A stretch of 64,000 nt of DNA from Oleiphilus messinensis (lineage in GTDB: Bacteria > Pseudomonadota > Gammaproteobacteria > Pseudomonadales > Oleiphilaceae): contig NZ_CP021425.1 in NCBI RefSeq assembly GCF_002162375.1, positions 5,953,276-6,017,275 of the forward strand. Reading direction: 5' to 3'. The notes beneath the pieces are model-generated. The model did no database searches, had not been told where the DNA came from, and was given only the letters and a program-made list of their open reading frames with translations. How positions within the stretch are numbered: the stretch's first letter is position 1; every line of letters starts with the position of its first letter. The position numbers and the translations under genes are program-made. Positions 29,531-44,417 of this stretch are shown here, piece by piece.

Positions 29531-30319
29531 TCAACAATAATTCGCAAACTTCATTTCTCGATCATTGTAATCGACCGGCATCATAGGTAATCGAATATAC
29601 GCCTTGATGATTGAAGTCGTTCTCTGCTTTCGTGCAACTACAGTACCTTCTCTGCTACCCGCCGCGTTTGTATTACCTTCTATCGTTGAGATCAGAGAGC
29701 CTTTGTTTTCCGTCACAATTCCGATATGTGAGAAAGTAAATACAACAATATCTCCCCGCATGGCTTTGGTAAATGTATCTTTTGGGGTAAACACCAAACA
29801 GTTTTTACGGGTTGCCCACTCATTTAGAAAACGCTGTACTGAAGGTTCTCTCGGCGGGATGAGTGAAGCATAGTAGGGAGACTGCGAACATAACTTCTGA
29901 ACACAAAGTGAAACGAAAGCAGCACACCACGGATAACCATCCGTCCTGCCATTGATAACTAAATCATCTGCCTTGAATATCTCCAACATTTTGGGACTAT
30001 TACCGGCTAGATTATTACCCGTTTCAGTGGTTCCGATATATTGTTCGGCAATGTCGGCCAATAAATGCTGAGGAAGCGAGTTTGAAAAATGAGGCAATGT
30101 TGCCTGAGACAATGCAAACCAAGTTCCACGTCCGACAATACCGTCAACAGATAGCTTAGCCTCAACTTGAAATCGCTTGACGGCTGCCACTGTCTGCGCG
30201 CCAAAGTCACCATCAACACTCAGGTTTGGTGAAGGTGAGAGCAATCGATTCAAGAGCTTTTGTAAGGTCATCACGTCAGCGCCACGGGAGCCTTTTCTGA
30301 TCGTTTTTTTCTGGGTCAT
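29531..30319 (-). CDS. peptidoglycan-binding (PG_binding_1) plus C-terminal Cys/His peptidoglycan hydrolase-like domain
   Basis: N-terminal GADVMTLQKLLNRL...DGDFGAQTVAAVKRFQ PG_binding_1 motif; C-terminal conserved Cys (YPWCAAFVS) and His (FSHIGIV) of CHAP/NlpC-like amidases. Confidence 0.55.
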   Translation of the reverse strand: MTQKKTIRKGSRGADVMTLQKLLNRLLSPSPNLSVDGDFGAQTVAAVKRFQVEAKLSVDGIVGRGTWFALSQATLPHFSNSLPQHLLADIAEQYIGTTETGNNLAGNSPKMLEIFKADDLVINGRTDGYPWCAAFVSLCVQKLCSQSPYYASLIPPREPSVQRFLNEWATRKNCLVFTPKDTFTKAMRGDIVVFTFSHIGIVTENKGSLISTIEGNTNAAGSREGTVVARKQRTTSIIKAYIRLPMMPVDYNDREMKFANYC

Positions 30320-30343
30320 ACTGGTCCTTCCTTGAACATGGGT

Positions 30344-30823
30344 CTATTTTTTCAGTCGATAATATATCCATAAATCTGAAGGGAGGCCTTCAACATTGGA
30401 AGACGACTCCAACAACAATACACCACCAACCACAAACTGCCCAGTTAAACCGGTGGCACTAAGGCGACCATCCTTCACGCAAAGGACATTGTATTGTTGA
30501 GTTTGAACCGGCAATCCGGGTTCAAAAAAACTACGAATAAGTGACGACTCACCATTGGTGGTACTCAATTTAACTGAAGCTGTCGCCCCACCAATTTCGG
30601 CATCAAACTCACTGCCTGATTGAGTATTTATAAATTCAAACGAGGTGCTGTCGACCACGTCAGTTCCCACCAAAATGCTTGATGTGGAAACGATGCTGGT
30701 CGCGTAAGAGGCTTCACAATGCCCATTTGATTGCTCAGCGGATACGCTTTGAGGGGTAAATGTACATGCAGGTATAAGTAAAGCAATTGAAGCCAGACTT
30801 ACAAATTTTCGAAGACTATCCAT
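30344..30823 (-). CDS. small lipoprotein, unknown function
   Basis: Signal peptide with lipobox LIPAC; directly upstream of the PG hydrolase gene. Confidence 0.45.
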   Translation of the reverse strand: MDSLRKFVSLASIALLIPACTFTPQSVSAEQSNGHCEASYATSIVSTSSILVGTDVVDSTSFEFINTQSGSEFDAEIGGATASVKLSTTNGESSLIRSFFEPGLPVQTQQYNVLCVKDGRLSATGLTGQFVVGGVLLLESSSNVEGLPSDLWIYYRLKK

Positions 30824-30910
30824 ATCTGTTTATCTCTATCCAACCAGCCATGAATTTCGGCTCGGATTTGTAGTATAAAGATAATTCAACCAGTTGCAAT
30901 TACTCATGCG

Positions 30911-31390
30911 TTGACAGGTTTGGAATCAATTGAGGCGACAATTATCCTGACACAGGGAGAAATGGTGAACCATTATTCAATAGCGGCAATCGGTTTTTTT
31001 ACTGCAACGTTCACTATTGCTGGTGAAAAAAACAGCAGCCCGGTTATACCGGTTTCAATTAATAGTGTGGAAACCCATCAGATAAGCGAAAACCTGGTTC
31101 GCATAATTCAATACAACATGGAGCTGGAACCAAAGCTTGATATCGAAATGTTTACTGCCCCGGGGATGGATTTCAAACAACTTCAATCTATTCAAGAGAT
31201 TGACTTGGGAAAAGAAAAGATCAATTTTGCAAACTCCAGTGGTACCTATATCGAAGGGATTTCAGTTGAAGATACAATGATTCACTTTGATATTGATCAT
31301 TACTATCTTGAGGGCGGGAGCATCGCTATAAGCTGTCAGATTAAAGTTGCGCAGGAAATTGGAACACCAAAGTGCGTGGAAAAAGAATAG
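30911..31390 (+). CDS. hypothetical protein
   Basis: 159-aa ORF, probable internal start with hydrophobic N-terminus. Confidence 0.3.
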   Translation: MTGLESIEATIILTQGEMVNHYSIAAIGFFTATFTIAGEKNSSPVIPVSINSVETHQISENLVRIIQYNMELEPKLDIEMFTAPGMDFKQLQSIQEIDLGKEKINFANSSGTYIEGISVEDTMIHFDIDHYYLEGGSIAISCQIKVAQEIGTPKCVEKE

Positions 31391-31421
31391 TCGCAATTAA
31401 TATCGGGGCCAACCCTGGCCC

Positions 31422-32579
31422 CTAATTTTTCACCGCTGTGGGTGCTTTACCGGTCAATCTCACCATATCATTCATCACGGAATCGAGGCCGCCATAAACA
31501 CTGATGTGATCGATTTTTTCAACCACTTTCTCCAGAGTTTCAAGTTCCTTGAGACGCAGGAGGGTGGCGTTGTTTTCCATCATTTTTGCCGTGTTGCTCA
31601 GGGAGCGTGTCGCGGCGGTTTCTTCCCGACGTTTGATCAGGTTTGCTTCTGCCGCTTTTTGCGCCTGTACAACCTGATTCAGGATTTCTTTCATTTCACC
31701 GGGCAGGATGATGTCCTTCACCCCCACTCGATCCAGAAAGATTCCGTAGTCTTTCAGTGATGCGTGGCACTCGTCATAGATGACGCTGGAAACAACATTT
31801 TTGTCGCTCAGAAGTTCATCCAGTGTCCGTGTACCAATCACTTCCCTCAGCGCAAGCTGCAGGCGTTTGTAGATGTAGTCCCCTACATTTTTCAGTTTTT
31901 GCGCAGCAACTTCCACATCCACCAATTGATAAACGGCATTCAAATTAACCCGCAGGCTCACCCGGTCTTTCGTCAGAATTTCCTGACCGGAAATTTCCAC
32001 CATTTGCAGTTTCAAATCGTATAACTGCACTTGCAGATCGCGGTTGAACAACCAGTAGCCGTAACGTCCTGGTTTCAGAGTCTGGATCCATTTTCCATTC
32101 TCATACAACAGCCCCACATAGCCATCCGGAACCAGCGCATTCAGGATCGTTTCAGCTCTCGCCGTACGATTCATCCCGGCACGGAGCAAGTGTGAAAGCA
32201 TGGGTTCTGCAATTGGCTGCAACACATCCAGCGAAAAGACTTTGACTTCCAGATTCAAACTATCCTTCCAGGTAACCAGACGCTCGCCGGGTTGCAGCAG
32301 CTGTTGAATTTTGTTGTCGAGATAAACGACACCGACTTCATTTTCCTGCATCATGACGCTATCAACATGGTTGGCAAATTCTTCTTTTTGCAACAACACG
32401 TCCAGCAACTCATGGGTAATACCAGAGCGCGTTACCGCCACAGAGAAAAATGAAAGCTTTTGCCCCATATCCCAGAAACGGTAAGTACCCGGTGTCAGAA
32501 CCTGTTGAAATTGTCTTTCCCTGTACATCAGTACGCGTTCATTATCTGCGACCAGTACTTTTCGTGTCATGCCGAACAT
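31422..32579 (-). CDS. SPFH/band-7 domain protein with extra N-terminal domain
   Basis: C-terminal half matches SPFH pattern (TKDRVSLRVNLNAVYQLVD...LALREVIGTRTLDELLSDKN...GIFLDRVGVKDIILPGEM...AEANL coiled coil). Confidence 0.6.
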   Translation of the reverse strand: MFGMTRKVLVADNERVLMYRERQFQQVLTPGTYRFWDMGQKLSFFSVAVTRSGITHELLDVLLQKEEFANHVDSVMMQENEVGVVYLDNKIQQLLQPGERLVTWKDSLNLEVKVFSLDVLQPIAEPMLSHLLRAGMNRTARAETILNALVPDGYVGLLYENGKWIQTLKPGRYGYWLFNRDLQVQLYDLKLQMVEISGQEILTKDRVSLRVNLNAVYQLVDVEVAAQKLKNVGDYIYKRLQLALREVIGTRTLDELLSDKNVVSSVIYDECHASLKDYGIFLDRVGVKDIILPGEMKEILNQVVQAQKAAEANLIKRREETAATRSLSNTAKMMENNATLLRLKELETLEKVVEKIDHISVYGGLDSVMNDMVRLTGKAPTAVKN

Positions 32580-32925
32580 GGCGTTACTCCTTGATTACAC
32601 GAAGCTCAATCATTGCTTCTATTTCAAATAAAACGGGTGAGGGGTAGCAGGGTCAACCGACATGCTTGAACGCCCTCTGATGATCCTCCCGATCTACTGC
32701 TTGGATCAACTTGCGGGACAGTTCCGCAGGGGCTCTACAACTCCCCCATTTGAAACACATTCCGTTATGCCAGGCGTAGCCTGATACGCTGCTCACCCGC
32801 GTTGGTACTACTGGCCGGACACGCAACCAACAACTTTGGTGCCCGGAATTCATACCGCTTTTGGGGCAAAGCCCCGTTCTCGTTAATGAGTCTAGGGAGT
32901 CGAACCCTAACCTTTCGGTTTACCG

Positions 32926-32999
32926 TGGCTTGTACAGGAGTTGAACCTGTGACCTATCAGTTATGAGCTGACTGCTCTATCCAACTGAGCTAACAAGCA
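32926..32999 (-). tRNA. tRNA-Met (anticodon CAU; elongator-like), acceptor 5' base irregular
   Basis: Reverse complement reads GCTTGTTAGCTCAGTTGGATAGAGCAGTCAGCTCATAACTGATAGGTCACAGGTTCAACTCCTGTACAAGCCA: D-arm GCTC/GAGC, anticodon loop CTCATAA, T-arm ACAGG-TTCAACT-CCTGT; the 5'-terminal acceptor position mismatches. Confidence 0.6.
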
Positions 33000-33319
33000 A
33001 GTGGTCGTGGAAGGACCATGCGAATACGTTTTGGCGGTACATCCGGTTTCAGAGAAACTGATGCCGGGCTGGGCTGTGAACCAGCACCCAGGGCCGTTTT
33101 GCATTCAACAGGGTTATTTCAAGAGCGGTGCCAATTCATCAATTCCTATCTGAAAATAGTTTTTATTAGCTTATTTTCAATTAGTTAAGATAATATTTGA
33201 GTTGGTCATGGGAATTCTGAAGCGGTAAATTACTGATAAAAAGTTATCAATCTGGATATAATTTTATCTAAAACGATTAATACATTTAGAGCACGTTCCA
33301 TTCTCGAGTTCTCCTGCCA

Positions 33320-33620
33320 AATTTAATAGTCCAGCGCTACGCTTAATGATTGCCGCCCTTGGAGATGCCAGCCAATTTGCAAATGGGTGGCAAATATCCG
33401 CGTGGCTTGGATTGACACTAAAACCAGTTGAGTGGATGCCTTCAACGAGTTACCGCTCGATTCATGATGCAAAACGGAATGTGAGTTACTTCCTGATGAA
33501 TTATTACAACTGGTAAAGACCGCATCAGTTCAATGATGGGCTACCACCGGTAAGCGCTGAAAAATTCGCTCAAAAAGTGTCCGGGTTTTATTGGCCACTA
33601 CAAAGAGCTTATTGATGATT
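33320..33620 (+). pseudogene. IS3-family transposase OrfB C-terminal remnant (frameshifted)
   Basis: Translations across frames give ...NIRVAWID... and YFLMNYYNWxRPHQFNDGLPPVSAEKF (IS3 OrfB C-terminal signature); no intact ORF. Confidence 0.5.
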
Positions 33621-33810
33621 ACCGGAAGAAACGTATGTTTCGGGCTCAAATGGATGGTTTTTTGGACATAGAGTCGCTTGAAGCGACTCTAACGGATATA
33701 AACACAACTAAACCAAGCAGAGATGACTAGCAGTGCCTGTCCCGGATTTACCCAGTCTCCGCTATTCTCGTTTCATATTGATCAGAGTAAAATCAATCTG
33801 CCTCTAAGTT

Positions 33811-34200
33811 TCAAGCCCCTTTAACTTTCAAAAGAGTATTTATTACATCCTCTGACGAACCAATATTTCTTGCATACTCAAGCACGCTTCTGCCATCATC
33901 ATTTTTTGAATTTACACGTGCCCCAGATCTTATTAACAACTCTAAAACCTTTGGATTGCCGCCTATTACTCCGTTGAATATAGGTGAACATCCATTGTCT
34001 CCTTTTGCGTTAACATCCGCTCCTGCATCTATTAAAATCCTCGCTGATTCGAGATCCCCCCACGAACAAACCGTATGTAATGGAGTATCATCCATGAGGT
34101 TTACACAATTGACTCCATTCAACTCGATGCCAAACCAAGATGCTGTATCTGAACAGCGTGCAAGTACACTGCTTAAGTCATTTTTCATAACTAAAAACAC
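33811..34200 (-). CDS. ankyrin-repeat protein, candidate immunity protein for upstream RHS-CT toxin
   Basis: Three ANK repeats (DDTPLHTVCSWGDLESARILIDAGADVNAKGDNGCSPIF...); 10-nt overlap with toxin gene end. Confidence 0.7.
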   Translation of the reverse strand: MFLVMKNDLSSVLARCSDTASWFGIELNGVNCVNLMDDTPLHTVCSWGDLESARILIDAGADVNAKGDNGCSPIFNGVIGGNPKVLELLIRSGARVNSKNDDGRSVLEYARNIGSSEDVINTLLKVKGA

Positions 34201-34886
34201 TCCTGCTTACAGTTTCGCTTAATATCTTCCACTGCATTGATTATTCGCTGCTTCACTTGTTGCAACTGACCCTGATGTTTGTTCCAAGCAGAACTTCCAG
34301 ACTCATCCCATTTATCTGACCAATTCTTCCGTAAGTCGTAACAAAGTTGAGCTTGATCTCGTTTTCTTTCTGCGTCTATACAAGGGTCGCCACTTGGAGG
34401 AGGTGGTGGCTGGTCACATATTTTGTGATACCTAGCATGCTGAGCATCCTTTCGTGCCGAATCTCCTGGCATGAGCGCAAGAGCTGCTATCCCTATACCG
34501 GCAGCAACATCCATAGGGCCAGGCACAGGAGAGTCAGACAATGCTAAAGCGATAGCAGCTTCAGCATCTAATCCATAAGGATCGACATAAATTACCGGGT
34601 TTTGATTTGCGTACCCATAAGTATTGATCCCGCCCCCTAGGCCAACAGGATCACTTTGCAAATACCGGCCTAACGTGGGATCGTAATCCCGATAGTAATT
34701 GTAGTAATACCCGGTCTCCCGATCATGATATTGCCCAGGAAAGCGAATATCCTGTCCGATGGTGTTGACCACTTCGGTGACTTCGCCGAAGGGGGTGTAT
34801 TCGCCTTTCCACACCACATTTTGATTTTGATCTGTAAGCACCTGAAGGGTACCCAGGTGGTCTGTGTGGACGAAGTAGAGTTTGAT
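34191..34886 (-). CDS. orphan RHS-core C-terminal toxin module (5'-truncated, no signal peptide or proper start)
   Basis: Frame reads IKLYFVHTDHLGTLQVLTDQNQNVVWKGEYTPFGE...[43 protein letters not shown] (RHS repeat-associated core, TIGR03696-type) then a unique 100-aa tip; upstream in-frame stop at 34887; homology to 38861..39739 breaks at 34893. Confidence 0.65.
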   Translation of the reverse strand: MKLYFVHTDHLGTLQVLTDQNQNVVWKGEYTPFGEVTEVVNTIGQDIRFPGQYHDRETGYYYNYYRDYDPTLGRYLQSDPVGLGGGINTYGYANQNPVIYVDPYGLDAEAAIALALSDSPVPGPMDVAAGIGIAALALMPGDSARKDAQHARYHKICDQPPPPPSGDPCIDAERKRDQAQLCYDLRKNWSDKWDESGSSAWNKHQGQLQQVKQRIINAVEDIKRNCKQECF

Positions 34887-34971
34887 TCAGCATGCGCTAA
34901 TCCGCATCACCCACCGACTCTTAGTTCTCGGACTAATTAGGCAGAGTGTCTTACCCTGTGGTTAGAAAAGA

Positions 34972-35460
34972 TTAAGCAAAATTAAAGCGCACCCGATCGC
35001 CTATTTCTAAATCAAGAGCATCCAAATTGTCTTTCACCTTTAAGTCACCATCGATAGAGAAACAATTAATCCGACAAAGATTGTTAAATACTTCCAATTC
35101 TGCTTGGAAACAAAATCCTTCTTTAAATTCGGATGCCAAGAGTAATTTATCGTTTAATAAGACTTCTGTTCTGATGACTTGTACAGGATGAACTATACGC
35201 TTGTCTCCTTGACTTAGCTCTAAAGGAACATCAGAAGGTAAAATATTTGGTGGGCCTATCGTAATATCCAAAAAATCACCTTTCTGAAAGTTTTCATGAA
35301 TCCACATTCCACCTCTTCCATCAACTAACTTAAATGAGCAGGCAAAATTCACTGATCTGTCGGCATTGCTGATCAAAAGAGCTTTTAAGCTACCACTTGG
35401 CCCAGTGACTAGAACCTGCTCATCAAATTTACTGGACGAAACTATAAAGGAGTTGATCAC
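34972..35460 (-). CDS. hypothetical protein, candidate immunity for CT module 35461..36006
   Basis: 162-aa ORF starting immediately after toxin stop, same strand. Confidence 0.4.
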   Translation of the reverse strand: MINSFIVSSSKFDEQVLVTGPSGSLKALLISNADRSVNFACSFKLVDGRGGMWIHENFQKGDFLDITIGPPNILPSDVPLELSQGDKRIVHPVQVIRTEVLLNDKLLLASEFKEGFCFQAELEVFNNLCRINCFSIDGDLKVKDNLDALDLEIGDRVRFNFA

Positions 35461-36006
35461 TCAATGGCTCCAGGGGTTTACTGTCGGAACTTTTGGTAGA
35501 TTGGGATTAGTTTTATTAAATTCGTTCACTTTCCTGTTGTGCTGTTTAACATAATCCAAATAATTTTTGTTGCCGTGATCTTTATTGAATACATCCGGTC
35601 CTTTTTTCAAGTAATCGCTAATTTCATTCAATTCTTTGGCTTGGATGTCTACATCACCAAGGTGCCTTTTCAGGATGTCATCGAGAGCGTTGTATGGAAT
35701 ATCGCTCGCTCCAAAGGGATCATTTGCGGCTTCGTCGCTATATATTTTTCTTAAGTCCGGACAATGGTTCAGTTTTGGAAGCTTAAATTTCCATGGGCCG
35801 GGAAATATGTCTATCGGATTAATTGCATCAGGATGGTCAGGAACTGGATCTTGCGGCAATCCTGCAACAGTTAATAATGCTCCAGCCCCCCACAACAATA
35901 GCACTGGTACGGCTTCGCCAGTTGGATCTGTATACTTAACAGGGTTTTGAAATGTATATCCATAGGTATTTAGACCCCCAGCCAACCCAATAGGATCACT
36001 TTGCAA
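35461..36006 (-). CDS. orphan RHS-type C-terminal toxin module (starts inside the DPxGL motif)
   Basis: Begins [31 protein letters not shown] then unique 150-aa tip; only about 5 codons of core homology upstream (GRY), then in-frame stop. Confidence 0.55.
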
Positions 36007-36216
36007 ATACCGCCCTACTCAGAAGTCGGTTAGAATTCTGATCCAAATAACAAATCAATCATTATTCCAAAGCCACCCAATGCAAGCAGCCACAACAATA
36101 CAACCGGTGCTTGCATAAATCAGTAACACATCACCAATTAGACCTGCCCAGTAAGTGCCACCAATCACTAAAACGATGCCAAATAAAATTCTGTAGAGTG
36201 TTGCAGCCTTCAAAAT

Positions 36217-36606
36217 TTAGTAACCACAAGCAAAGTTTGGATTACTTGACCTGCAACTGAATGCACACGCAGCTGTTGATAGTCCTACATAACCAGCTGA
36301 AGCTGCACCACACATTTTCCCAGCCCCTTGTGAGATTAGACCTGAATTCTCACCAACAAATAACGCTGCACCTCCCCAACTTAGCTCTGCAGTATTAGTG
36401 GCGCCCATACATGCAGTCAAGCATGAGTAATAAGAATCTTCACACCGCCAATCATGTTTCGAGCCAGTTCCATTATTCATTGCACACTCCGCAGTAGCAC
36501 ACTCTTTTCTGTTATCTGTATCGCCACTGTTGCACATCGCTCCATTTGGTAACCCCATTTCTGCTGGACACGGCTCAGGCTTCAACCCTCGGCCTTTGTG
36601 GATCAC
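36217..36606 (-). CDS. Cys-rich (19 Cys/129 aa) putative toxin tip, preceded by frameshifted DPIGL core remnant
   Basis: Upstream 36640-36700 encodes [15 protein letters not shown] in another frame; junction contains G7 and C7 homopolymer runs. Confidence 0.35.
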   Translation of the reverse strand: MIHKGRGLKPEPCPAEMGLPNGAMCNSGDTDNRKECATAECAMNNGTGSKHDWRCEDSYYSCLTACMGATNTAELSWGGAALFVGENSGLISQGAGKMCGAASAGYVGLSTAACAFSCRSSNPNFACGY

Positions 36607-37180
36607 TATAGATAAGGGGGGGTTCCTAAAACATAAGTATTAATCCCCCCCGCCAACCCAATAGGATCACTTTGCAATTACAGTCCGCCTAGGCGAAATT
36701 CTAGCTATATCTGGCTACAATCCCAACGCATTCAATTACTTAAAAACCTCAAAACCCAACATTCTTTCACTCTAGCAGCTCACAATCCCCGACGCACTTT
36801 TTCCCTTAACTTTTATCATCGTCCGACTTGGTTTTTGCTCTTACGAACATGATTAAACAGACACTATTTGTCACTGTCGCGATATTCTCAATCCCAACCA
36901 TTCTTATTAATTCGATTATTTGTTCCATTATTCCTGTCCCCTTTTTTTAGACGACCCTTATTCTGTAGTCTGCTCAGATAATGCAAACAAGTAACCTGAC
37001 CATAGGTTTGGGCAGGTTAAATTTGGGCTTGCATCTGCTGACATTTTGATAAAGTCTGCCTAGCGGATCATTAGTTAAAGGGTCATCGGTCGGTGACCCT
37101 TTAACTCTTATAAGGAATAACGTGGGGGATTTAGGGCTTTTCTGAAGGGAAACAGGAGGCCAAAACCTCCTGATATTTAG

Positions 37181-37411
37181 TTAAGACTGGATAAGATGGA
37201 AGTAATGTTGAAAGATTTTGATGTAACGCTGCCAGCTATCTAACCGCTCCCAGGCTTCAATGACGGTATAACCTGCCGGTAAAAACTCCATGCGGTCGAG
37301 TACAAAGGCTGCCGCTATTTGTTCTCCGGTACTGGCTCCCCTGCTGCCACGGTTTTGTAGTTCGTTTGCCACATCGATGATCTTTTCAATTTCCCATTTC
37401 ATTTTATTCAC
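37181..37411 (-). CDS. hypothetical small protein (76 aa)
   Basis: ORF only; hairpin AGGAGGCCAAAACCTCCT just downstream of stop. Confidence 0.3.
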   Translation of the reverse strand: MNKMKWEIEKIIDVANELQNRGSRGASTGEQIAAAFVLDRMEFLPAGYTVIEAWERLDSWQRYIKIFQHYFHLIQS

Positions 37412-37699
37412 TCCTGTTAGTTTTATCGTTCGGGATCAAACCCGCTTCCGCTGTTGTATTGAGCCAGCAGCATCGCGCGCAGCCCCGTCAAGGGGGCTTT
37501 TCAGCGTAGCGGCCCTTGACGGGGCGAGCACGGTGCCACAATGCGCGAGCAACAGAGGGAGCCTTTAACGAAGCCGGGTACCCCTGCCCCCCAGCGGGGG
37601 CAAGGGGAGAAACAAAGGTTTTAAAGTGCGCTTGCGCCAGCCTTAGTTGTTCCCCTTGGGGCTAGGGGTAAACAAACCACCGCGGAGCTACGACATCCG

Positions 37700-38545
37700 A
37701 ACGCCAATACGCGTGAATGGGCTGGCACCAAGGCCAGTTTAATACGGCACTATTGGCCCACTTTTTAGCCGCCTTTAAGCAGGGCAAGCGTATTGGTGGG
37801 CGGGGGAGGAGCGGGAGAGGTGGAAGCTGCGCGCTCTATTGGCTTACCTGCAGCGACATCGTGATCAAGAAGGAACAGGAAGGCTAGGGGCGCTCTGTGA
37901 TTGAGCAATTGGCAAAGTATTTATCGAGCGAATTCCCTGGTGTGCAGGGCTTTTCCGCGCGGAATTTATGGCGGATGCGGGCATTTTACCAAGCTTATCC
38001 CAAAGCGCCTGAATTTCTGCCACAAGCTGTGGCAGAAACCGGGACAGAACCCAGTCTACCCGCCCAAATCACGCTATCACCCTGGGGACACCTGATCACC
38101 TTGATCGAGAAGGTCAAAGTCCCAGTCGTTCGACAATGGTACGCCCAAGCCGCTCTGGAATACCGTTGGTTTGGGGCCATACTGGTCCATCAGATCGAAT
38201 CACGGCTATATGACCGGCATGGCAATGCAGTCACCAACTTTACACATACTTTATATCGACCTCCTGTTTTATCACCTCAAGCTACGCTGCTATGTCGTGA
38301 TTGATCTCAAGATACAGGACTTCAAGCCAGAGTTTGCCGGCAAGATGAACTTTTATCTGTCCGCTGTGGATGATTTGTTACGGCACCCAACCGACAACCC
38401 AGCATATGCTTGGTTCTATGTAAATCCAACAACCGCATCGTGGCCGAGTATGCCCTGCGGGATGTGAACAAGCCGGTGGGCGTGGCCACCTATTTGACTG
38501 AGGCTTGCCGGACGCATTGCGTTCCAGTTTGCCAGATATTGAGTC
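37700..38545 (+). pseudogene. DUF1016 (YhcG-like, PDDEXK nuclease-like) gene, inactivated by in-frame stop and frameshifts
   Basis: Pieces ALYWLTCSDIVIKKEQEG*G-RSVIEQLAKYLSSEFPGVQGFSARNLWRMRAFY, DLLFYHLKLRCYVVIDLKIQDFKPEFAGKMNFYLSAVDD, IVAEYALRDVNKPVGVATYLTEA lie in three frames. Confidence 0.6.
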
Positions 38546-38600
38546 ATTGGAGGCCACGCTGGCGAAGACTGATAAACCGAAATAGACATAAGTGCCTGTC
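38345..38600 (+). repeat. direct repeat copy 1 (3' end of DUF1016 gene), about 90 percent identical to 40100..40330 with a 24-nt indel
   Basis: Alignment by eye: ccggcaagatgaacttttatctgtccgctgtggatgatttgttacggcacccaaccgac... recurs at 40100. Confidence 0.75.
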
Positions 38601-38621
38601 CCCACTGGTTTGTTTGCGTTC

Positions 38622-38864
38622 TTATTTTTTTCTCATTAAGAAAAGATTATACAAAACCAGAATCACAATAATCACAGGCCATGATACTAAGAACACAGTA
38701 TAAGCCATGCTCCCTGGTGTCCACCCATCTACATAGTTTCTCTCGTAAACCAACATCAGCAACCAATCTACCGGATACACTATTATGCCTGGAGCAACTA
38801 TAACTAATAAATACACAACAACCAGAGTAAAAAGAAGCCTTCTGGGGAACTTTCTTTTATTCAT
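38622..38864 (-). CDS. small two-TM membrane protein, candidate immunity for 38861..39739
   Basis: 80 aa, two hydrophobic helices, 4-nt overlap with toxin gene stop. Confidence 0.4.
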   Translation of the reverse strand: MNKRKFPRRLLFTLVVVYLLVIVAPGIIVYPVDWLLMLVYERNYVDGWTPGSMAYTVFLVSWPVIIVILVLYNLFLMRKK

Positions 38865-39739
38865 GGAATCGGTACCGTTGGACTGACATTCCGTAAATTA
38901 TTCCGGTTCAAATAATACGCTGAATCTATTTGATTCTTCAGATTATTTGAGTAAGAAATACCGCCCCCAGAAAGATTACCTATGTCTGGTAAACCAGCTC
39001 CACCCGCGTTTAGAACTCCAGTTGCAGCGTCAACACAATTTCCCCATGATCCCCTGTATTTGTCATTGTTTAACTGATTCTTTGCTTGTCTATCGGCAGC
39101 AGCTTCATTGGGTAAATCTACATAAACAGCATAATCGGGAGGACGGCCATATAAATCAACATCTTGATCATAGGAGCGATACTTAGAGTCAAACGGGTTC
39201 GCTCCTTGCTTGTCGGGATGATGACTAACATAAGTTCCATCATTTGTAAGAACCGCTGCATGCCCGTAAGCAGAATCATAGTTATTCCCCGAAGCGTTAG
39301 TGTAGCGCCCAGGCTTCCAAACATACAATGTGGCTAAACCATGTGGGTCAATATTGGTCAATGGATTTTGGAGAACATATCCATAAGTATTCAGACCGCC
39401 TCGCAAGCCAACAGGATCACTTTGAAAATATCTTCCTAACGTGGGATCGTAATCCCGATAGTAATTGTAGTAATACCCAGTCTCCCGATCATGGTATTGA
39501 CCGGGAAAGCGAATATCCTGTCCGATGGTATTGACCACTTCGGTGACTTCGCCGAAGGGGGTGTATTCACCTTTCCAAACCACATTTTGATTTTGATCTG
39601 TAAGGACCTGAGGGGTACCCAGGTGGTCGGTGTGGACGAAGTAGAGTTTTGATTCAGCATTCGCGGTGCCGGACAGCATGGCTAAGGAAACAGTCAGCAG
39701 GCAGGCGATGTTTTGTAAGATGTCTTTCAGATTTTTCAT
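38861..39739 (-). CDS. secreted RHS repeat-associated core domain protein with C-terminal toxin tip (signal peptide, no Rhs shell)
   Basis: MKNLKDILQNIACLLTVSLAMLSGTANA signal peptide; ESKLYFVHTDHLGTPQVLTDQNQNVVWKGEYTPFGE...[43 protein letters not shown]; unique 155-aa tip; AAGGA RBS. Confidence 0.75.
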   Translation of the reverse strand: MKNLKDILQNIACLLTVSLAMLSGTANAESKLYFVHTDHLGTPQVLTDQNQNVVWKGEYTPFGEVTEVVNTIGQDIRFPGQYHDRETGYYYNYYRDYDPTLGRYFQSDPVGLRGGLNTYGYVLQNPLTNIDPHGLATLYVWKPGRYTNASGNNYDSAYGHAAVLTNDGTYVSHHPDKQGANPFDSKYRSYDQDVDLYGRPPDYAVYVDLPNEAAADRQAKNQLNNDKYRGSWGNCVDAATGVLNAGGAGLPDIGNLSGGGISYSNNLKNQIDSAYYLNRNNLRNVSPTVPIP

Positions 39740-39749
39740 GACAATGTCC

Positions 39750-40105
39750 TTATTGTGCCAAGGCTAATATTTCTGCGGAATTCAGGCTGCTGCCGTCGGC
39801 AAACTCAATAAATTCAATACGGTAGACTGTATAAATAACGGCGTGCAATATCGTAATACGATCTCCACTAAGTTCCCCTTGCGCGTCCAGTAAATCTATC
39901 TGGATATGTGCGCCGACCTTACTAAACACCAATTGTTCAGGTGTGATCCCTTCACCGAATACGATTTTATCAGTTTGCCCCCGGTAATTATCGTTGTCAC
40001 GAATGGTGTCAATGCCATCCCCCCGTTCAAAGTAGTAGGTATCAGCACTCGCAAATTCAATCAGGGTGCCATCACCCGGGCCACCGGTAATTTGCTGGCA
40101 AGGTG
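39750..40105 (-). pseudogene. fragment of a T1SS-secreted (RTX-type) protein C-terminal secretion domain
   Basis: ITGGPGDGTLIEFASADTYYFERGDGIDTIRDNDNYRGQTDKIVFGEGITPEQLVFSKVGAHIQIDLL...DRITILHAV...IEFADGS matches GDGxDTI...DxIxF..GI...L.F type I secretion C-terminal target pattern; N-terminal 80 codons of the ORF are antisense of the DUF1016 repeat (not real). Confidence 0.5.
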
Positions 40106-40330
40106 AACTTTTATTTGTCCGCTGTGGATGATTTGTTACGGCACCCAACCGACACCCCAGCATAGGCTTGATTCTATGTAAATCCAACAACCGCATCGTG
40201 GCCGAGTATGCCTTGCGGGATGTGAACAAGCCGGTGGGTTGGCCACCTATTTGACTGAGGCCTTGCCGGATATTGAGTTGTTGGAGGCCACGCTGGCGAA
40301 GACTGATAAACCGAAAGAGACATAAGTGCC
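40100..40330 (+). repeat. direct repeat copy 2 (isolated 3' end of DUF1016 gene)
   Basis: See copy 1; encodes ...NRIVAEYALRDVNKPVG...LTEALPDIELLEATLAKTDKPKET* with a frameshift. Confidence 0.75.
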
Positions 40331-40403
40331 TGTCCCCATTGTCTTGCGTCAAGAATTATGTTGATGCGTTTTACGCATTACGTTACATTCGCTATAAATA
40401 CTT

Positions 40404-40601
40404 ATGTCAAGGCGTACTCCGAACATAGGCATGCACATACCACTTATTGAGAAGCTGATACAACTCAGCGATATTCTGGGAGTTTCGCTGGATTATCTGG
40501 TAACCGGCAACAAACCAACGGCTAAGGAGGTTATTCGCTATGACGATTCCAGAGCAAAACGCGCAGTCCTTGTTGGAGAAGATTCAATCATTACCGCTTG
40601 A
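40404..40601 (+). CDS. XRE-type HTH C-terminal fragment (truncated regulator/antitoxin)
   Basis: IQLSDILGVSLDYLVTG resembles last helices of XRE HTH; no N-terminal half. Confidence 0.3.
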   Translation: MSRRTPNIGMHIPLIEKLIQLSDILGVSLDYLVTGNKPTAKEVIRYDDSRAKRAVLVGEDSIITA

Positions 40602-40767
40602 TCGTATCGCAGAAGAGGAAGACTTCGTGGATTTTTTAAAGGAACGGGCCAAGTCGCACACAACCACCCATCAAGACGTATTGGATTTTCCAGTGGACGA
40701 CCTCGGCCCCTGGCCGGAGGGATTGAGCTTACGCAGAGAAGATATGTATGGCGATGACGGACGTTAA
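40540..40767 (+). CDS. putative antitoxin-like small acidic protein
   Basis: 75 aa; immediately precedes PIN remnant; weak. Confidence 0.3.
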   Translation: MTIPEQNAQSLLEKIQSLPLDRIAEEEDFVDFLKERAKSHTTTHQDVLDFPVDDLGPWPEGLSLRREDMYGDDGR

Positions 40768-40897
40768 ACCGCTATTCATAGATACCAACATCGTCGCCAC
40801 CATGCTGGCTTATGGTATTCCCTCTGTGCTGACGCACAACAGTGCGGATTTTAAACGCTTCGAGTCCATCATTAAAATTGAGGGAATTGGCCCATAA
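40748..40897 (+). pseudogene. vapC (PIN-domain toxin) remnant with internal deletion
   Basis: MAMTDVKPLFIDTNIV (PIN motif 1) joined directly to SVLTHNSADFKRFESI (PIN C-terminal motif); only 49 codons. Confidence 0.45.
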
Positions 40898-41029
40898 CAC
40901 AAAGCCCAGCCAAGTGCTGGGCTTTTCAAACAGCGGTGTAGCAATTACATAAGCAGGATAGTAACAGGCAGTATCGGGAGTCAGCCAAATTAAACCATTC
41001 GACTCGTTCACTATTTCCAAGAGATCGGG

Positions 41030-41491
41030 TCAAGCTTGCGCACGCTTGCATTGATCACAAATGCAGTCCAGTTCCAGCTGGGAGTTCAGGAGATGGTAAC
41101 CTGCTTCTTCAACGTTAACCTGAAGTGTCTTCACGATCTCACTGGAAATGGCAATTTCCTTTACGCGCCGACATTGACGACAAATCAGGAATTGCGGTAC
41201 TTGATGATCATGGCGACAGAGTATGTGGGAACAAGCGACAAACTTGTTCTCCGAAGAGAGTTTGTGCACTAACTGCTCGGAAATGAGAAAATCGAGAATA
41301 CGATAAGCGGACATGGGCGGCATTGACTTCTCCGCATTCGCATTATAGCGATCTACAATTTCGTATGCGGAAAGCGGGCCCTGTGTATCAACCAGTATTG
41401 ACAATATTTGCGCACGCTTCTCAGTCAGTCGACTACCACTCTTCGTGCATTTTTCAGCTGCACGTTTGATTACTTCTTGGGTGTGCTCCAT
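41030..41491 (-). CDS. zur: Fur-family regulator, Zur-like
   Basis: 153 aa; HHxxH region and two CxxC pairs (CRQCRR, CDQCKR); adjacent to znu genes. Confidence 0.8.
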   Translation of the reverse strand: MEHTQEVIKRAAEKCTKSGSRLTEKRAQILSILVDTQGPLSAYEIVDRYNANAEKSMPPMSAYRILDFLISEQLVHKLSSENKFVACSHILCRHDHQVPQFLICRQCRRVKEIAISSEIVKTLQVNVEEAGYHLLNSQLELDCICDQCKRAQA

Positions 41492-41549
41492 CGTTTTGTT
41501 TCACTTTGTTCTCAGGATTCTGAGCGCTATTGTAGCAACCTTTACGCAA

Positions 41550-42332
41550 TCACACAGTCCCTGATAAAAATTGACTTCGATTGCGCTGGTTTTGCAGCAA
41601 TAGCGTTACACTCACGCTGATCAGCACGATAGCGACCACAACTACCGCACCAGCCGGCCAGTCGAAGATTGCAGACCCGCACAGCCCGGCAACATGGCCG
41701 GTAAAACTGACAACAATCGCCAAGGCGGTCCGGGATCCGCGCAGATGACATAACAACAGCGGGGCAACAATCAGGGTTGCAAACACGACGTAAATACCCG
41801 CCAAATCCACGGCCAGTGTCACCACCAAAGCAAATAGCGGCAAAAACAGTTTAGCGCGCAATTGCGGAACACCAATGCCACACCATAGCAGCACCAGAAC
41901 TGCGGAGAGTACAAGGGGGATAAGATGTTGTTTGGAAGTCCACAGCAAATCACCGTTCATCGCCGTTGCTAACAGTTGTGCGCCGTGAGGATCCTGACTG
42001 ACCACCAGCGTTGACAGGCTGGCAGCAAACACGTAGAGAATACCGATCATGGCTTCCCGGTATGCGGGCACCGCTCGTACAATTATTTTGATGCCGAAGG
42101 CACAAATCAGGGCGGAAAGCAGCCCAAGCACGGGCAGTGGCTGAATAAGCGACAGCCAGTGGGCAGACCATTGGCTTTGCACAATTACACCTAACGCTGC
42201 CCACTGTGCGATAGCGATGTCAGCAAACACCACACCGCGCGTTAATACCTGTCGTCCGAGTGGTACCAATGCAATACACAACAACAAACTGGCGGTGCAA
42301 GGCAGCCAGAGCCAGAGCATTGTCGTAATCAT
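41550..42332 (-). CDS. znuB: metal (zinc) ABC transporter permease, ZnuB-like
   Basis: 260 aa, about 8 TM, ABC-3 family profile. Confidence 0.75.
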   Translation of the reverse strand: MITTMLWLWLPCTASLLLCIALVPLGRQVLTRGVVFADIAIAQWAALGVIVQSQWSAHWLSLIQPLPVLGLLSALICAFGIKIIVRAVPAYREAMIGILYVFAASLSTLVVSQDPHGAQLLATAMNGDLLWTSKQHLIPLVLSAVLVLLWCGIGVPQLRAKLFLPLFALVVTLAVDLAGIYVVFATLIVAPLLLCHLRGSRTALAIVVSFTGHVAGLCGSAIFDWPAGAVVVVAIVLISVSVTLLLQNQRNRSQFLSGTV

Positions 42333-43273
42333 CTGCTGTCTTGCTCTCTCGCCTTGAACAGCTGTTCAACAATAACCGTGATCAGCTCATCCAACTGGTC
42401 TGTATCCGCTTGTGTTGTGACTGTACCGGGTACCACCGTCACCGCAATGCCAGCCCGAGACGACAACCATTGCGCAGGCTGCGGATCCTGATGTTGCGCA
42501 ATAAGAATGGTTGCGGTGGTGCTCAGATTCGGACTCTCCAGAAGCTGATTCAAATGGCGAACACTGGGCGGCAATCCGGGCTTCGGCTCCAGGTCGATTG
42601 CGACCTTCACTCCCAAATAGTGCAACAAATAATGGAATGCAGAGTGCTGCACAACAACCGACATTCCGGCCAGCTTGCTACGGGCCTGTTTCCATCGGAT
42701 TTGCGCCTTGTTCCAACGAACTTTCCATTGCAGATGACGCAGGGCAATACGATTCGCCTCTTCGGGCTGCAACGAAACCAGACGATCAACAAGCCCTTGC
42801 ATAATGGCCGGAATTGAATCGGGATCCAGCTGGATATGGGGATTCCCCTCCGGGTGAACGTCTCCCATACTGCGATCAACATGGTCATGGGGTTGATGCA
42901 ATTCCGCCAATTTCGCGGCATAGAAAACCCCGGTTTCCGGATGATTTAACTGCGGATTTGCCGCACTGGCCAGAAGCGCAGGTAACCATCCGACCTCCAG
43001 AGATGCACCGGTGCAAATCACAAAATCCGCCCGGTTCATCGCGGCGATCAAACTGGGTCGCGCCTCGATGTAGTGGGGATCCTGCCAGGCGTTGGTTGCC
43101 ACGGTAATATCGGCCTCCGGCAATAGCACCTTTACCAGAGAGGCCCATTCCGGTTCACAAGCAAATACCGATAAGGCCCCATAGCTCAGAGAACTGAGGC
43201 TGAAACAGCCAAAGAGGAGGAGTGCTCGCAATGTCGTCAGCAACTTAAAATTCATGGGCACCATGATCTCCAA
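42329..43273 (-). CDS. metal ABC transporter substrate-binding protein, ZnuA-like
   Basis: Signal peptide; DPHYIEARPS and ADFVICTGASLEVGWL match ZnuA/TroA cluster-9 SBP motifs; start probably downstream Met (overlaps upstream gene). Confidence 0.6.
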   Translation of the reverse strand: MEIMVPMNFKLLTTLRALLLFGCFSLSSLSYGALSVFACEPEWASLVKVLLPEADITVATNAWQDPHYIEARPSLIAAMNRADFVICTGASLEVGWLPALLASAANPQLNHPETGVFYAAKLAELHQPHDHVDRSMGDVHPEGNPHIQLDPDSIPAIMQGLVDRLVSLQPEEANRIALRHLQWKVRWNKAQIRWKQARSKLAGMSVVVQHSAFHYLLHYLGVKVAIDLEPKPGLPPSVRHLNQLLESPNLSTTATILIAQHQDPQPAQWLSSRAGIAVTVVPGTVTTQADTDQLDELITVIVEQLFKAREQDSR

Positions 43274-44417
43274 AGCTCATCACATATTGCAAAACCAGTG
43301 TATCGTCCGTGTTCTCAAAGCCTTCTCCGTCCTGATGACTAAACTGCAAGCGCAGTGTAGAAAAGTGCGAATGCTGATAAGCCACCATGAAGTCTGCCTC
43401 TTCCAGTGCTTGATCATGGAAATGGTCACCATGGGGCTGACTGACATCCAGTTCACCGTAGCGGGCTCCGATTGACCATTGGGGTGTAAAGCGATAGACC
43501 GCGGAGGCATACCAACCTTCATGAATATCATCGTCCGAGGCATATTCATTAGGATCTGTCGCCCGGATATACTCACCACTAATTACAACCTGCTGCTGGC
43601 GAACGTTCCCTTCAGGAGACCATTTCCACACCAGATCCACCCCGTAGGTGTGTTTTCCGGTATAGGCAATACTGTGGGAATGTCCGGCATGATCGTGATC
43701 CCCATGCGCTTGATCAGTATGGTCATGCCCGGAGTGATCGGCGCCTGCCTCATCCGGCACTGCAGTTTGTCGATTGTGCAAATAGCTCACGCCCAATTGC
43801 CAGCTCGATCCCACGGAAAGGTCACCACCCCACTCACTGCGGGCGGTGAATACCCCCACGTCCTCATTGCCTTCACTCAGCCGGTCACCATTTAACGCTT
43901 CCACCCCCACCTGCCAGTACAGCGGGGTCGGTAACAGCAGATTCAACTGCACACCATCATCGTAATAGTGGCTGCCAAACAATGCCCGGTATACCGCGGG
44001 TCGACTGGAAAAATGATCACTGTGGGTGTGGCGACTATTCAGATACCCGAATTGAGAAAGAAAACGCCCTCCCCGTGCGGTGAGGTTGTACGAAAGCCCA
44101 ACGGTTTGTACAAAGGCCTCCTCAAGATTCACTTCCGTTTCACCTTCGTGATCTTCCAACACCGTCGTTAACCGACCCACAAATAAGTCATCAACAGGGG
44201 CCGAGAGCGTCAACTCATTATGGCCCACTGCAAAACCGGACTCGCTATGCCCGAGCGCCCCTTCATTTTGCTGGTACCGCCCATCTAACACGACACTGAT
44301 ATTCGGGTTAAATTCAGTGGCGGACAGTTCACCCACACAGATCAGCACCGAAACGGCACCAATCAGTGTGGTCCGCGCAACCCGGACGGTGCGCGGCGCA
44401 TTCCTTTGAAATATCAT
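43245..44417 (-). CDS. His-rich outer-membrane beta-barrel protein (putative Zur-regulated porin)
   Basis: Signal peptide, HSGHDHTDQAHGDHDHAGHSHS tract, C-terminal aromatic terminus (AHEF). Confidence 0.5.
   Translation of the reverse strand: MIFQRNAPRTVRVARTTLIGAVSVLICVGELSATEFNPNISVVLDGRYQQNEGALGHSESGFAVGHNELTLSAPVDDLFVGRLTTVLEDHEGETEVNLEEAFVQTVGLSYNLTARGGRFLSQFGYLNSRHTHSDHFSSRPAVYRALFGSHYYDDGVQLNLLLPTPLYWQVGVEALNGDRLSEGNEDVGVFTARSEWGGDLSVGSSWQLGVSYLHNRQTAVPDEAGADHSGHDHTDQAHGDHDHAGHSHSIAYTGKHTYGVDLVWKWSPEGNVRQQQVVISGEYIRATDPNEYASDDDIHEGWYASAVYRFTPQWSIGARYGELDVSQPHGDHFHDQALEEADFMVAYQHSHFSTLRLQFSHQDGEGFENTDDTLVLQYVMSFGDHGAHEF

Follow-up and report, generated by a model that had tools for sequence, protein, structure and literature searches.

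How did the 3' end of one DUF1016 gene come to stand on both sides of an unrelated toxin cassette? We addressed this question in a 64,000-nucleotide (nt) stretch of the Oleiphilus messinensis genome (assembly GCF_002162375.1, contig NZ_CP021425.1, positions 5,953,276 to 6,017,275 of the forward strand), hereafter the window, whose first letter is position 1. Two direct copies of the 3' end of a DUF1016/YhcG pseudogene flank a block that holds an intact gene for a protein with a signal peptide, an RHS-associated core and a variable C-terminal domain (SP-RHS-CT; CT, C-terminal domain), together with a small partner gene. The answer that we favor, at about an even chance, is that the repeat is the scar of a recombination event in a degenerate orphan toxin/immunity island, namely a one-sided, homology-anchored insertion of the homology-facilitated illegitimate recombination (HFIR) or Campbell type, with DUF1016 as the anchor. 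The locus is not described in the ME102 genome paper, which mentions Rhs proteins only in GI4.

The two copies were located at 38333..38612 (copy 1, 280 nt) and 40091..40346 (copy 2, 256 nt), both in the + orientation, with a start-to-start spacing of 1758 bp. Copy 1 consists of the 3' end of the pseudogene and about 27 nt past its stop codon, and copy 2 is a lone piece of the DUF1016 3' end. Global alignment of the copies gave 241 matches, 14 substitutions and 26 gap columns, corresponding to 94.5% identity without gaps and 85.8% with gaps. A repeat search resolved three collinear direct-repeat blocks (38333-38480/40091-40238 at 95%, 38483-38504/40240-40261 at 100%, and 38529-38612/40263-40346 at 92%), and the longest perfect runs between the copies were 41, 39, 36 and 25 nt. 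When the whole window was compared with itself by BLAST, 38333-38607 matched 40091-40341 with E=5e-93; the single further long repeat was a pair of RHS cores (34612-34897 versus 39378-39664, 91.6%). A preliminary description of this DNA had placed direct repeats of a DUF1016 3' end on either side of the cassette, and the repeat search, self-BLAST and alignment all agree with it. Its coordinates (38345-38600 and 40100-40330) were in the right place but slightly narrow, and its estimate by eye of about 90% identity, for which it had proposed a pairwise alignment, was fair.

We found one metagenome contig, L001 (1440 bp, an independent assembly), that is 100% identical to window positions 38820-40259. 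It crosses the junction between copy 2 and the RTX gene fragment that ends the block, so the structure is no assembly artefact of one data set. Chance or an assembly artefact was ruled out as the source of the repeat by this contig together with the self-BLAST result. A transposon target-site duplication was also ruled out, as the repeat measures 256-280 bp against the 2-14 bp expected. The open reading frame (ORF) list and Pfam revealed no transposase within the bracketed block and no integrase or recombinase in or beside this 1.5-kb block, and the repeat search found no inverted repeats in 36000-42500.

The repeated DNA belongs to a gene of the DUF1016/YhcG family (PD-(D/E)XK nuclease), now a pseudogene at 37720..38585 (+), which was delimited by Pfam, five intact homologues and tblastn with one of these, P0121. 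A frameshifted YhcG-like DUF1016 gene had been noted previously at 37700..38545; the identity and the frameshift hold, as Pfam detects DUF1016_N (PF17761, 4e-22) in 37897-38304 and YhcG_C (PF06250, 3.9e-21) in 38171-38467 in different frames, but the gene ends at about 38585. The intact comparators were P0121, P0125, P0122, P0124 and P0128 as proteins (334-358 aa) and L003, L088 and L089 as DNA (n=3). Reconstruction of the pseudogene against P0121 by tblastn gave pieces that were 66-96% identical. Its N-terminus is decayed, with an in-frame stop at about 37885, and about 55-70 codons that the intact homologues possess are missing from its interior, where NFTHTL is joined to YIDLLFYH. Several frameshifts were counted, at least three against the homologues and at least two of them in the 3' part, and the window's DUF1016 gene has no intact frame of about 355 aa.

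One of these lesions is common to both copies. DNA alignment with the three intact homologues revealed a 1-nt deletion, GAC[G]AA, at 38395/38396 in copy 1 and at 40153/40154 in copy 2 (+ strand). The missing G is kept in 3/3 intact DNA homologues, and the site is not a homopolymer. Judged by this alignment, the deletion is a shared derived frameshift, and the copies descend from one gene that was already dead. The duplication, or the split of two alleles, therefore came after the inactivation of the gene.

Other lesions are private to one copy. The preliminary description had reported a 24-nt insert in copy 1, but the polarity is the reverse. The 24 nt that are unique to copy 1 (38511-38534) encode DALRSSLP, part of the conserved LPDxLRxSLPD, and the eight codons of this region are present in all five intact homologues as protein and in 3/3 as DNA; the difference is thus an eight-codon deletion in copy 2, where the loss lies between the short repeats TTGCCGGA and TTGCCAGA. 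Copy 2 also has a private 1-nt deletion, GGG[C]GTGG, at about 40239, and copy 1 has its own, GC[C]TTG, at about 38507. The 14 substitutions are scattered over the full repeat length with no long identical tract between them, and this even spread gives no sign of recent gene conversion or of a recent in-situ duplication.

The edges of the repeat were then read at the nucleotide level. The homology begins at TTTGC(C/T)GGCAAG and ends about 27 nt past the DUF1016 stop. Beyond copy 1, the stop of the convergent immunity ORF follows 10 nt further on, which leaves 37 nt between the DUF1016 stop and the immunity stop. At the left breakpoint of copy 2 (40090/40091), an RTX nonapeptide (…ITGGPGDG, minus strand) abuts copy 2; the RTX unit and the DUF1016 gene are both truncated at this point, indicating an illegitimate joint. 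At the right breakpoint (40346/40347), copy 2 abuts a 5'-truncated helix-turn-helix (HTH) gene. On the evidence of these junction sequences, both ends of copy 2 are illegitimate joints and not element termini.

The block between the copies, 38613-40090, contains three genes, all on the minus strand. An RTX fragment, an SP-RHS-CT gene and a partner with two transmembrane helices had been proposed for it, and the ORFs, Pfam and TIGR03696 bear out this content. The SP-RHS-CT gene, OLMES_5273 (38861..39739), is intact and encodes 292 aa, with matches to Pfam RHS and to the whole of TIGR03696 Rhs_assc_core (1-76/76). A Shine-Dalgarno sequence, AAGGA, can be read upstream of its ATG. The N-terminus is Sec-type signal-like (…SGTANA, then ESK) and is followed by a complete RHS-associated core at aa 59-135 (DPHGL) and a CT of about 150 aa (window 38861-39300), for which neither Pfam nor NCBIfam gave a match. 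This domain is 49% identical to the CT of P0002, a JGI Rhs fragment. The related CTs P0004, P0026, P0083 and P0085 have a common His…Asn-Cys pattern, which may be reminiscent of permuted papain-like peptidases. The partner, at 38622..38864 (-), is an 80-aa ORF with two hydrophobic helices that overlaps the stop of the toxin gene by 4 nt and has no family match; we presume it to be the immunity gene. The preliminary description had called the cassette active. Both of its ORFs, toxin and immunity, are intact, but activity is no more than possible, and there is no shell gene nearby.

The third gene of the block is a 5'-truncated RTX/HCBP fragment at 39750..40090 (-), recognized by Pfam HCBP_related and its RTX nonapeptide, whose stop lies 10 nt ahead of the SP-RHS-CT start. 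An exhaustive search indicated that it is one unit of about 105 aa (RTX nonapeptide plus HCBP_related) of a kind found in 5-31 copies within giant proteins of 1,000-7,000 aa. The five giant relatives that were examined carry HemolysinCabind and HCBP_related domains and in no case an RHS domain. Neither the O. messinensis protein set nor other sources yielded a close relative of the fragment, the best match being 49-50% identical, which is consistent with imported DNA.

DUF1016 3' ends recur beside RHS-CT/immunity pairs, both inside the window and outside it. The locus OLMES_5266-5273 (about 33000-40900) is a degenerate orphan array of minus-strand RHS-CT/immunity modules, and orphan unit A at its other end (33811..34897, -) contains an RHS-core-CT1 gene and an ankyrin-repeat ORF. 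The RHS-core-CT1 gene (OLMES_5266, 34191-34897, -, 216 aa) has lost its signal peptide, with a stop ahead of IKLYFVHTDHLG, and matches TIGR03696 over 1-76/76 in 34191-34841. The ankyrin-repeat ORF (33811-34200, -), the presumed immunity gene, overlaps it by 10 nt. Just past this ORF lies a third DUF1016 3'-end fragment at 33664..33740 (+), a different allele whose coding part, 33664-33729, encodes DIESLEATLTDINTNKPSRDD followed by a stop. This peptide is identical to the P0121 C-terminus, with 20/21 residues matching in the tblastn alignment, and the fragment's DNA is 91% identical to L003:11011-11076. The post-stop motif AGTGCCTGTCCC follows the fragment and is present in copies 1 and 2 too. 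The fragment is bordered, in addition, by unassigned sequence and by the end of an IS3-like fragment (about 33346-33603).

The same arrangement was observed on L003, an unrelated metagenome contig, where an intact DUF1016 gene (encoding P0121) is followed after 16 nt by a convergent 121-aa ORF and a gene for a 302-aa SP-RHS-CT protein. The RHS core of L003 is 79-82% identical in DNA to the cores of the window, its CT and immunity parts are unrelated, and nothing is shared with the window beyond the RHS core and the DUF1016 3' end. Its tight convergent layout is the same as that at copy 1, so the context of copy 1 looks native. Three units thus have common flanks and unrelated CT and immunity cargo: 33664-34897, 38333-39664 and L003:11011-12251. 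Identities among them are 79-92% for the RHS core and 83-91% for the DUF1016 3' end.

From the repeat, its pseudogene origin, the common frameshift, the gene-truncating breakpoints and the recurring DUF1016 3' ends, all of which are seen directly, we infer an order of events, a foreign donor and a mechanism. A DUF1016 gene convergent to a toxin/immunity slot would first have been inactivated by the 1-nt deletion. A donor segment would then have come from a related lineage with the same pseudogene and other cargo, namely an immunity gene, an SP-RHS-CT gene and the tail of an RTX-like gene. One end of this donor would have paired with the resident DUF1016 in a RecA-dependent manner, and the other end, inside the RTX-like gene, would have formed an illegitimate joint with the resident DUF1016 where it corresponds to 38333. 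A circularized fragment inserted by a single crossover (Campbell type) would lead to the same topology by another route. The product would read DUF1016 5' part, incoming 3' end (copy 1), immunity gene, SP-RHS-CT gene, truncated RTX gene, displaced resident 3' end (copy 2) and old downstream DNA. The 5.5% divergence of the copies would be mostly that between donor and recipient, and the private indels would reflect later decay.

Several features of the locus suit this history. The order of gene body, 3' end, insert, displaced 3' end and old downstream DNA can be accounted for because a single homologous crossover yields such a topology. An HFIR or Campbell scar needs one homologous anchor and one gene-truncating illegitimate joint, and both are present, with DUF1016 as the anchor. 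The shared frameshift, the even 5.5% divergence, the RTX fragment without a close relative and the native layout of copy 1 fit a donor from a related lineage.

Some findings weigh against the insertion of a donor segment at a DUF1016 anchor. No donor or empty-site genome was found, the genome and metagenome scans having given distant relatives only, and L001, the sole contig besides the genome, has the same arrangement. A metagenome scan with an alignment of the DUF1016 subfamily found no orthologous loci; it supplied 80 generic DUF1016 loci (relatives of at most 62% identity, 508 kb) as a negative control, and an RHS core lay near DUF1016 in 0/80 of them. Close DUF1016 homologues also occur beside primase, integrase and HTH genes (L088, L089), within a tra operon of the F type (L090) and at an ordinary site on the chromosome (L091-L094). 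DUF1016 is therefore no general partner of RHS cassettes, and its role as an anchor rests on three units in two genomes. Furthermore, a local two-step history, in which a tandem duplication is followed by deletion and decay, yields the same structure.

Such an origin in situ is less probable than the insertion but deserves serious consideration. Illegitimate unequal exchange or a template switch within one genome would have duplicated the DUF1016 3' end, one route being tandem duplication of 38333-40090, deletion of the second copy of the cargo and divergence of the copies by 5.5% in place. Duplication of a pseudogene predicts a common frameshift, as is seen here, and the private decay in both copies fits as well; duplications are also frequent at rhs loci (PMC3967940). 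However, at least two rearrangements are needed, the second of them ending exactly at the homology boundary. Moreover, identical direct repeats of about 280 bp, 1.5 kb apart, must persist through 14 substitutions and four indels without deletion or conversion, and no recent conversion tract is present.

If, instead, the DUF1016 3' end were a maintained, functional downstream homology arm, it would form with the RHS core a two-anchor slot in which SP-RHS-CT/immunity pairs are swapped, and a swap by single crossover would have left copy 2 behind as a by-product. The three units in two unrelated contexts, with common flanks and different cargo, argue for such a slot, as does the contrast with the 0/80 generic loci. 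The sample is small, though, and the three units may all derive from one ancestral block; the DUF1016 copies of the window are pseudogenes or fragments; and the L005 and L006 arrays, which carry the same toxin class, are without DUF1016, while other close DUF1016 genes have unrelated neighbors. We regard this explanation as unlikely. It overlaps the insertion that we favor, and it rests on three units only. A little more doubtful still is the related proposal that the 3' end of this DUF1016 subfamily is a recurrent, perhaps selected downstream homology arm, paired with the RHS-core coding segment, and copy 2 the footprint of a single-crossover cassette capture; if true, split Rhs toxins would possess a cassette-exchange system with two anchors. 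Islands often insert at the 3' ends of tRNA or protein genes and bring a replacement 3' end. The copies could accordingly be attL/attR-like remnants of a site-specific integrative element that targeted the DUF1016 3' end and carried a replacement for it. Its topology fits (5' part of the gene, element-borne 3' end, cargo, displaced 3' fragment), and close DUF1016 homologues stand beside integrase and primase genes in L088 and L089. However, the block has no integrase or recombinase in or next to it, one of its boundaries is a truncated RTX repeat unit and not an element end, inverted repeats are lacking, and in L088 and L089 the element carries the DUF1016 gene as a passenger and does not target it. 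This explanation appears very improbable. HTH-DUF1016 was also considered as the common backbone of a single family of integrative elements that carry toxins, and this was rejected, as it holds only in part (L088 and L089) and other close homologues lie in the tra operon and at the chromosomal site.

Whatever their origin, the two copies could serve as substrates for exchange. The preliminary description had held that recombination between the repeats would excise or duplicate the cassette. The minimal identity usually quoted for RecA-dependent exchange is about 25 bp, and the perfect runs of 41, 39 and 36 nt exceed it, so RecA-mediated exchange is feasible and the claim plausible. No deletion junction, circle or tandem duplication was found, within the small reach of one identical metagenome contig and no close genome. 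RecA exchange between the copies would delete or tandemly duplicate a unit of 1.73-1.76 kb that has no replication or integration functions. Given the 5.5% divergence, such exchange would be infrequent. A deletion takes the immunity ORF as well, so that cells whose kin express the toxin would probably be at a selective disadvantage.

Of greater biological significance is the RHS-core pair, at which recombination would follow the classical route of orphan activation. Copy A (34612..34897, -) lies in orphan unit A, and copy B (39378..39664, -) lies inside the SP-RHS-CT gene; they are 91.6% identical over 287 nt. Recombination between them would fuse the OLMES_5273 signal peptide and core to the CT1/ankyrin pair and delete 4.77 kb, which would include the DUF1016 pseudogene and two decayed orphan modules. 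The first of these modules is a CT tip at 35461-36017 (-), with a partial TIGR03696 match in 35461-36006, which a 162-aa ORF (34972-35460, -) directly abuts. The second is a frameshifted CT at about 36217-36681 (-) with a 52-aa ORF (36055-36213, -) across a gap of 3 nt. Each CT in the array has a small ORF downstream, for which an immunity role is putative. Self-BLAST detected weaker RHS-core matches at 35939-36017 and 36632-36681, and DPxGL motifs of the forms IDPHGL and VDPYGL can be read in the array. No YD-shell or full-length Rhs gene is present in the window, which has no ORF above 1044 aa and gave no tblastn match with the shell proteins of L005 and L006. A tRNA-Met(CAT) gene (-) borders the island, with IS110-like and IS3-like transposase fragments next to it (window 32925-33600); an Rfam scan of 30000-44000 detected tRNA only.

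Homologues of the 292-aa gene provided a view of related arrays. At least 27 of 30 are proteins of 190-305 aa with a signal-peptide-like N-terminus, an RHS-associated core and a variable CT; P0002, P0085 and P0107 are without such an N-terminus, the first of them being a piece of a longer Rhs protein. A split Rhs layout was observed at L005:766-5396 and L006:5723-10714, where a gene of about 1250 aa with a signal peptide, DUF6531 and a YD shell has no RHS-associated core. A separate SP-RHS-CT gene of 237-278 aa stands behind the shell gene, immediately so in L005 and with one intervening 132-aa ORF in L006. Further SP-RHS-CT/immunity orphans come next in L005, one of them preceded by a 59-aa remnant of the shell gene tail. 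We asked if the RTX fragment of the window could likewise be the tail of a split-Rhs shell gene, like the CBM-like remnant of L005; this was unsupported, as the fragment is one giant-RTX unit and the five tested relatives are without RHS. An alternative source may be a shell gene whose C-terminus is extended by RTX-type sequence.

In the orphan array of L003 (5447-12675), the toxin-antitoxin modules ParDE, BrnT and MazEF are interspersed among SP-RHS fragments and recurring 3' pieces of a YD/TSP3 gene; the repeats of this array measure 596 bp (97% identity) and 414 bp (90%). Self-comparison of L003 and L005 revealed many direct repeats of 200-600 bp with 84-97% identity. Direct repeats are thus normal in such arrays, and the only unusual point here is that the repeated DNA comes from a neighboring pseudogene. 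Other searches reached no further. Zur (41030-41491), used as a route to an orthologous locus, had one match in the genome collection, 52% identical and non-syntenic. Exact-protein look-ups with five window ORFs left four unrecorded (Zur and the DUF1016_N, DUF2281 and immunity ORFs), and blastn against the plasmid collection gave, among the matches listed, the generic DUF1016 domain only, at 66-72% identity.

The DNA on both sides of the repeats was also inspected. To the right of copy 2, segment B (40347..40897, +) contains a 5'-truncated XRE-type HTH fragment (40404-40601, +), a DUF2281-like 75-aa ORF (40540-40767, +) and, overlapping the latter, a 49-aa PIN-like remnant (40748-40897, +). 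The stretch 40404-40897 is a decayed addiction-module remnant, and its PIN-like part appears internally deleted. To the left of the DUF1016 pseudogene, a GC-rich (about 55-57%) segment of about 300 nt (37430-37730) separates it from a 76-aa ORF. This segment contains long perfect hairpins, GCCCCGTCAAGGG…CCCTTGACGGGGC and CCCCTGCCCCC-AGC-GGGGGCAAGGGG, and RNA folding gave -138.6 kcal/mol with z=-4.0 for the + strand and z=-2.7 for the - strand. It has no Rfam match and no further copy in the window or in L003, L088 or L089; relatives carry an XRE HTH gene at this position. The 76-aa ORF (37181-37411, -) has no family match and is 59% identical to a 78-aa ORF at L089:8432-8668 (-), which lies upstream of a 405-aa/165-aa convergent pair beside an intact HTH-DUF1016, a primase and an integrase. 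The 76/78-aa ORF is a candidate for an accessory gene conserved at toxin loci of this kind. A promoter and terminator scan of 37000-41000 gave no more sites than shuffled sequence.

We compared the locus with known systems. For Salmonella Typhimurium LT2, recombination in evolved lineages was proposed at an rhs repeat of 522 bp and 95% identity, and the model was examined by Southern blot and PCR (Koskiniemi et al. 2014, PMC3967940). The window resembles it in having direct repeats of a few hundred bp and about 95% identity in a polymorphic-toxin array, by which exchange could delete or duplicate modules, and its RHS-core pair (91.6%) is exactly an LT2-type repeat. Unlike in LT2, however, the DUF1016 repeat stems from an unrelated, opposite-strand pseudogene neighbor and not from the conserved 5' region of the toxin gene, and exchange between its copies removes the whole cassette instead of swapping toxin tips; no recombinants were seen here. 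HFIR with a conserved anchor has been proposed for the addition of effector-immunity modules in V. cholerae and at Rhs loci (Kirchberger et al. 2017, PMC5361080). As in the HFIR of the V. cholerae type VI secretion system, the window combines a conserved anchor, an illegitimate, non-homologous end, gene remnants and arrays of orphan modules. In the V. cholerae model the effector has the anchor upstream of it and old immunity genes are moved downstream, whereas the anchor proposed for the window is a downstream gene in convergent orientation, and the scar, a duplicated piece of this anchor, lies upstream of the new cassette.

Compared with Campbell-type or attL/attR islands, the insert is likewise flanked by imperfect direct copies of the 3' part of its target, one of them displaced; it differs in having no integrase or backbone, in consisting of 1.5 kb of gene fragments and one toxin/immunity pair, and in a target that was already a pseudogene. 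The 292-aa gene has the same architecture as the SP-RHS-CT proteins of L005 and L006, and its orphan neighbors resemble the strings in L005. Unlike those loci, the window is without a shell gene, and its cassette is preceded by the RTX/HCBP fragment and not by a YD-shell tail.

The feature is thus a further instance of direct-repeat scars in polymorphic-toxin orphan arrays. The preliminary description had overlooked the wider pattern, namely the common frameshift, the third DUF1016 fragment, the RHS-core pair and the L003 layout. Taken alone, the repeat is of small importance: it adds one more route by which orphan toxin arrays are assembled, with a neighboring pseudogene, partly duplicated, as the proposed anchor in place of the conserved region of the toxin itself. 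The common frameshift gives relative timing, as the death of the gene preceded its duplication, and the repeat delimits a 1.76-kb unit open to loss or amplification. The recurrent adjacency of DUF1016, immunity and SP-RHS-CT genes, the strongly folding GC-rich segment ahead of the pseudogene and the split layout of shell and SP-RHS-CT genes may merit attention of their own.

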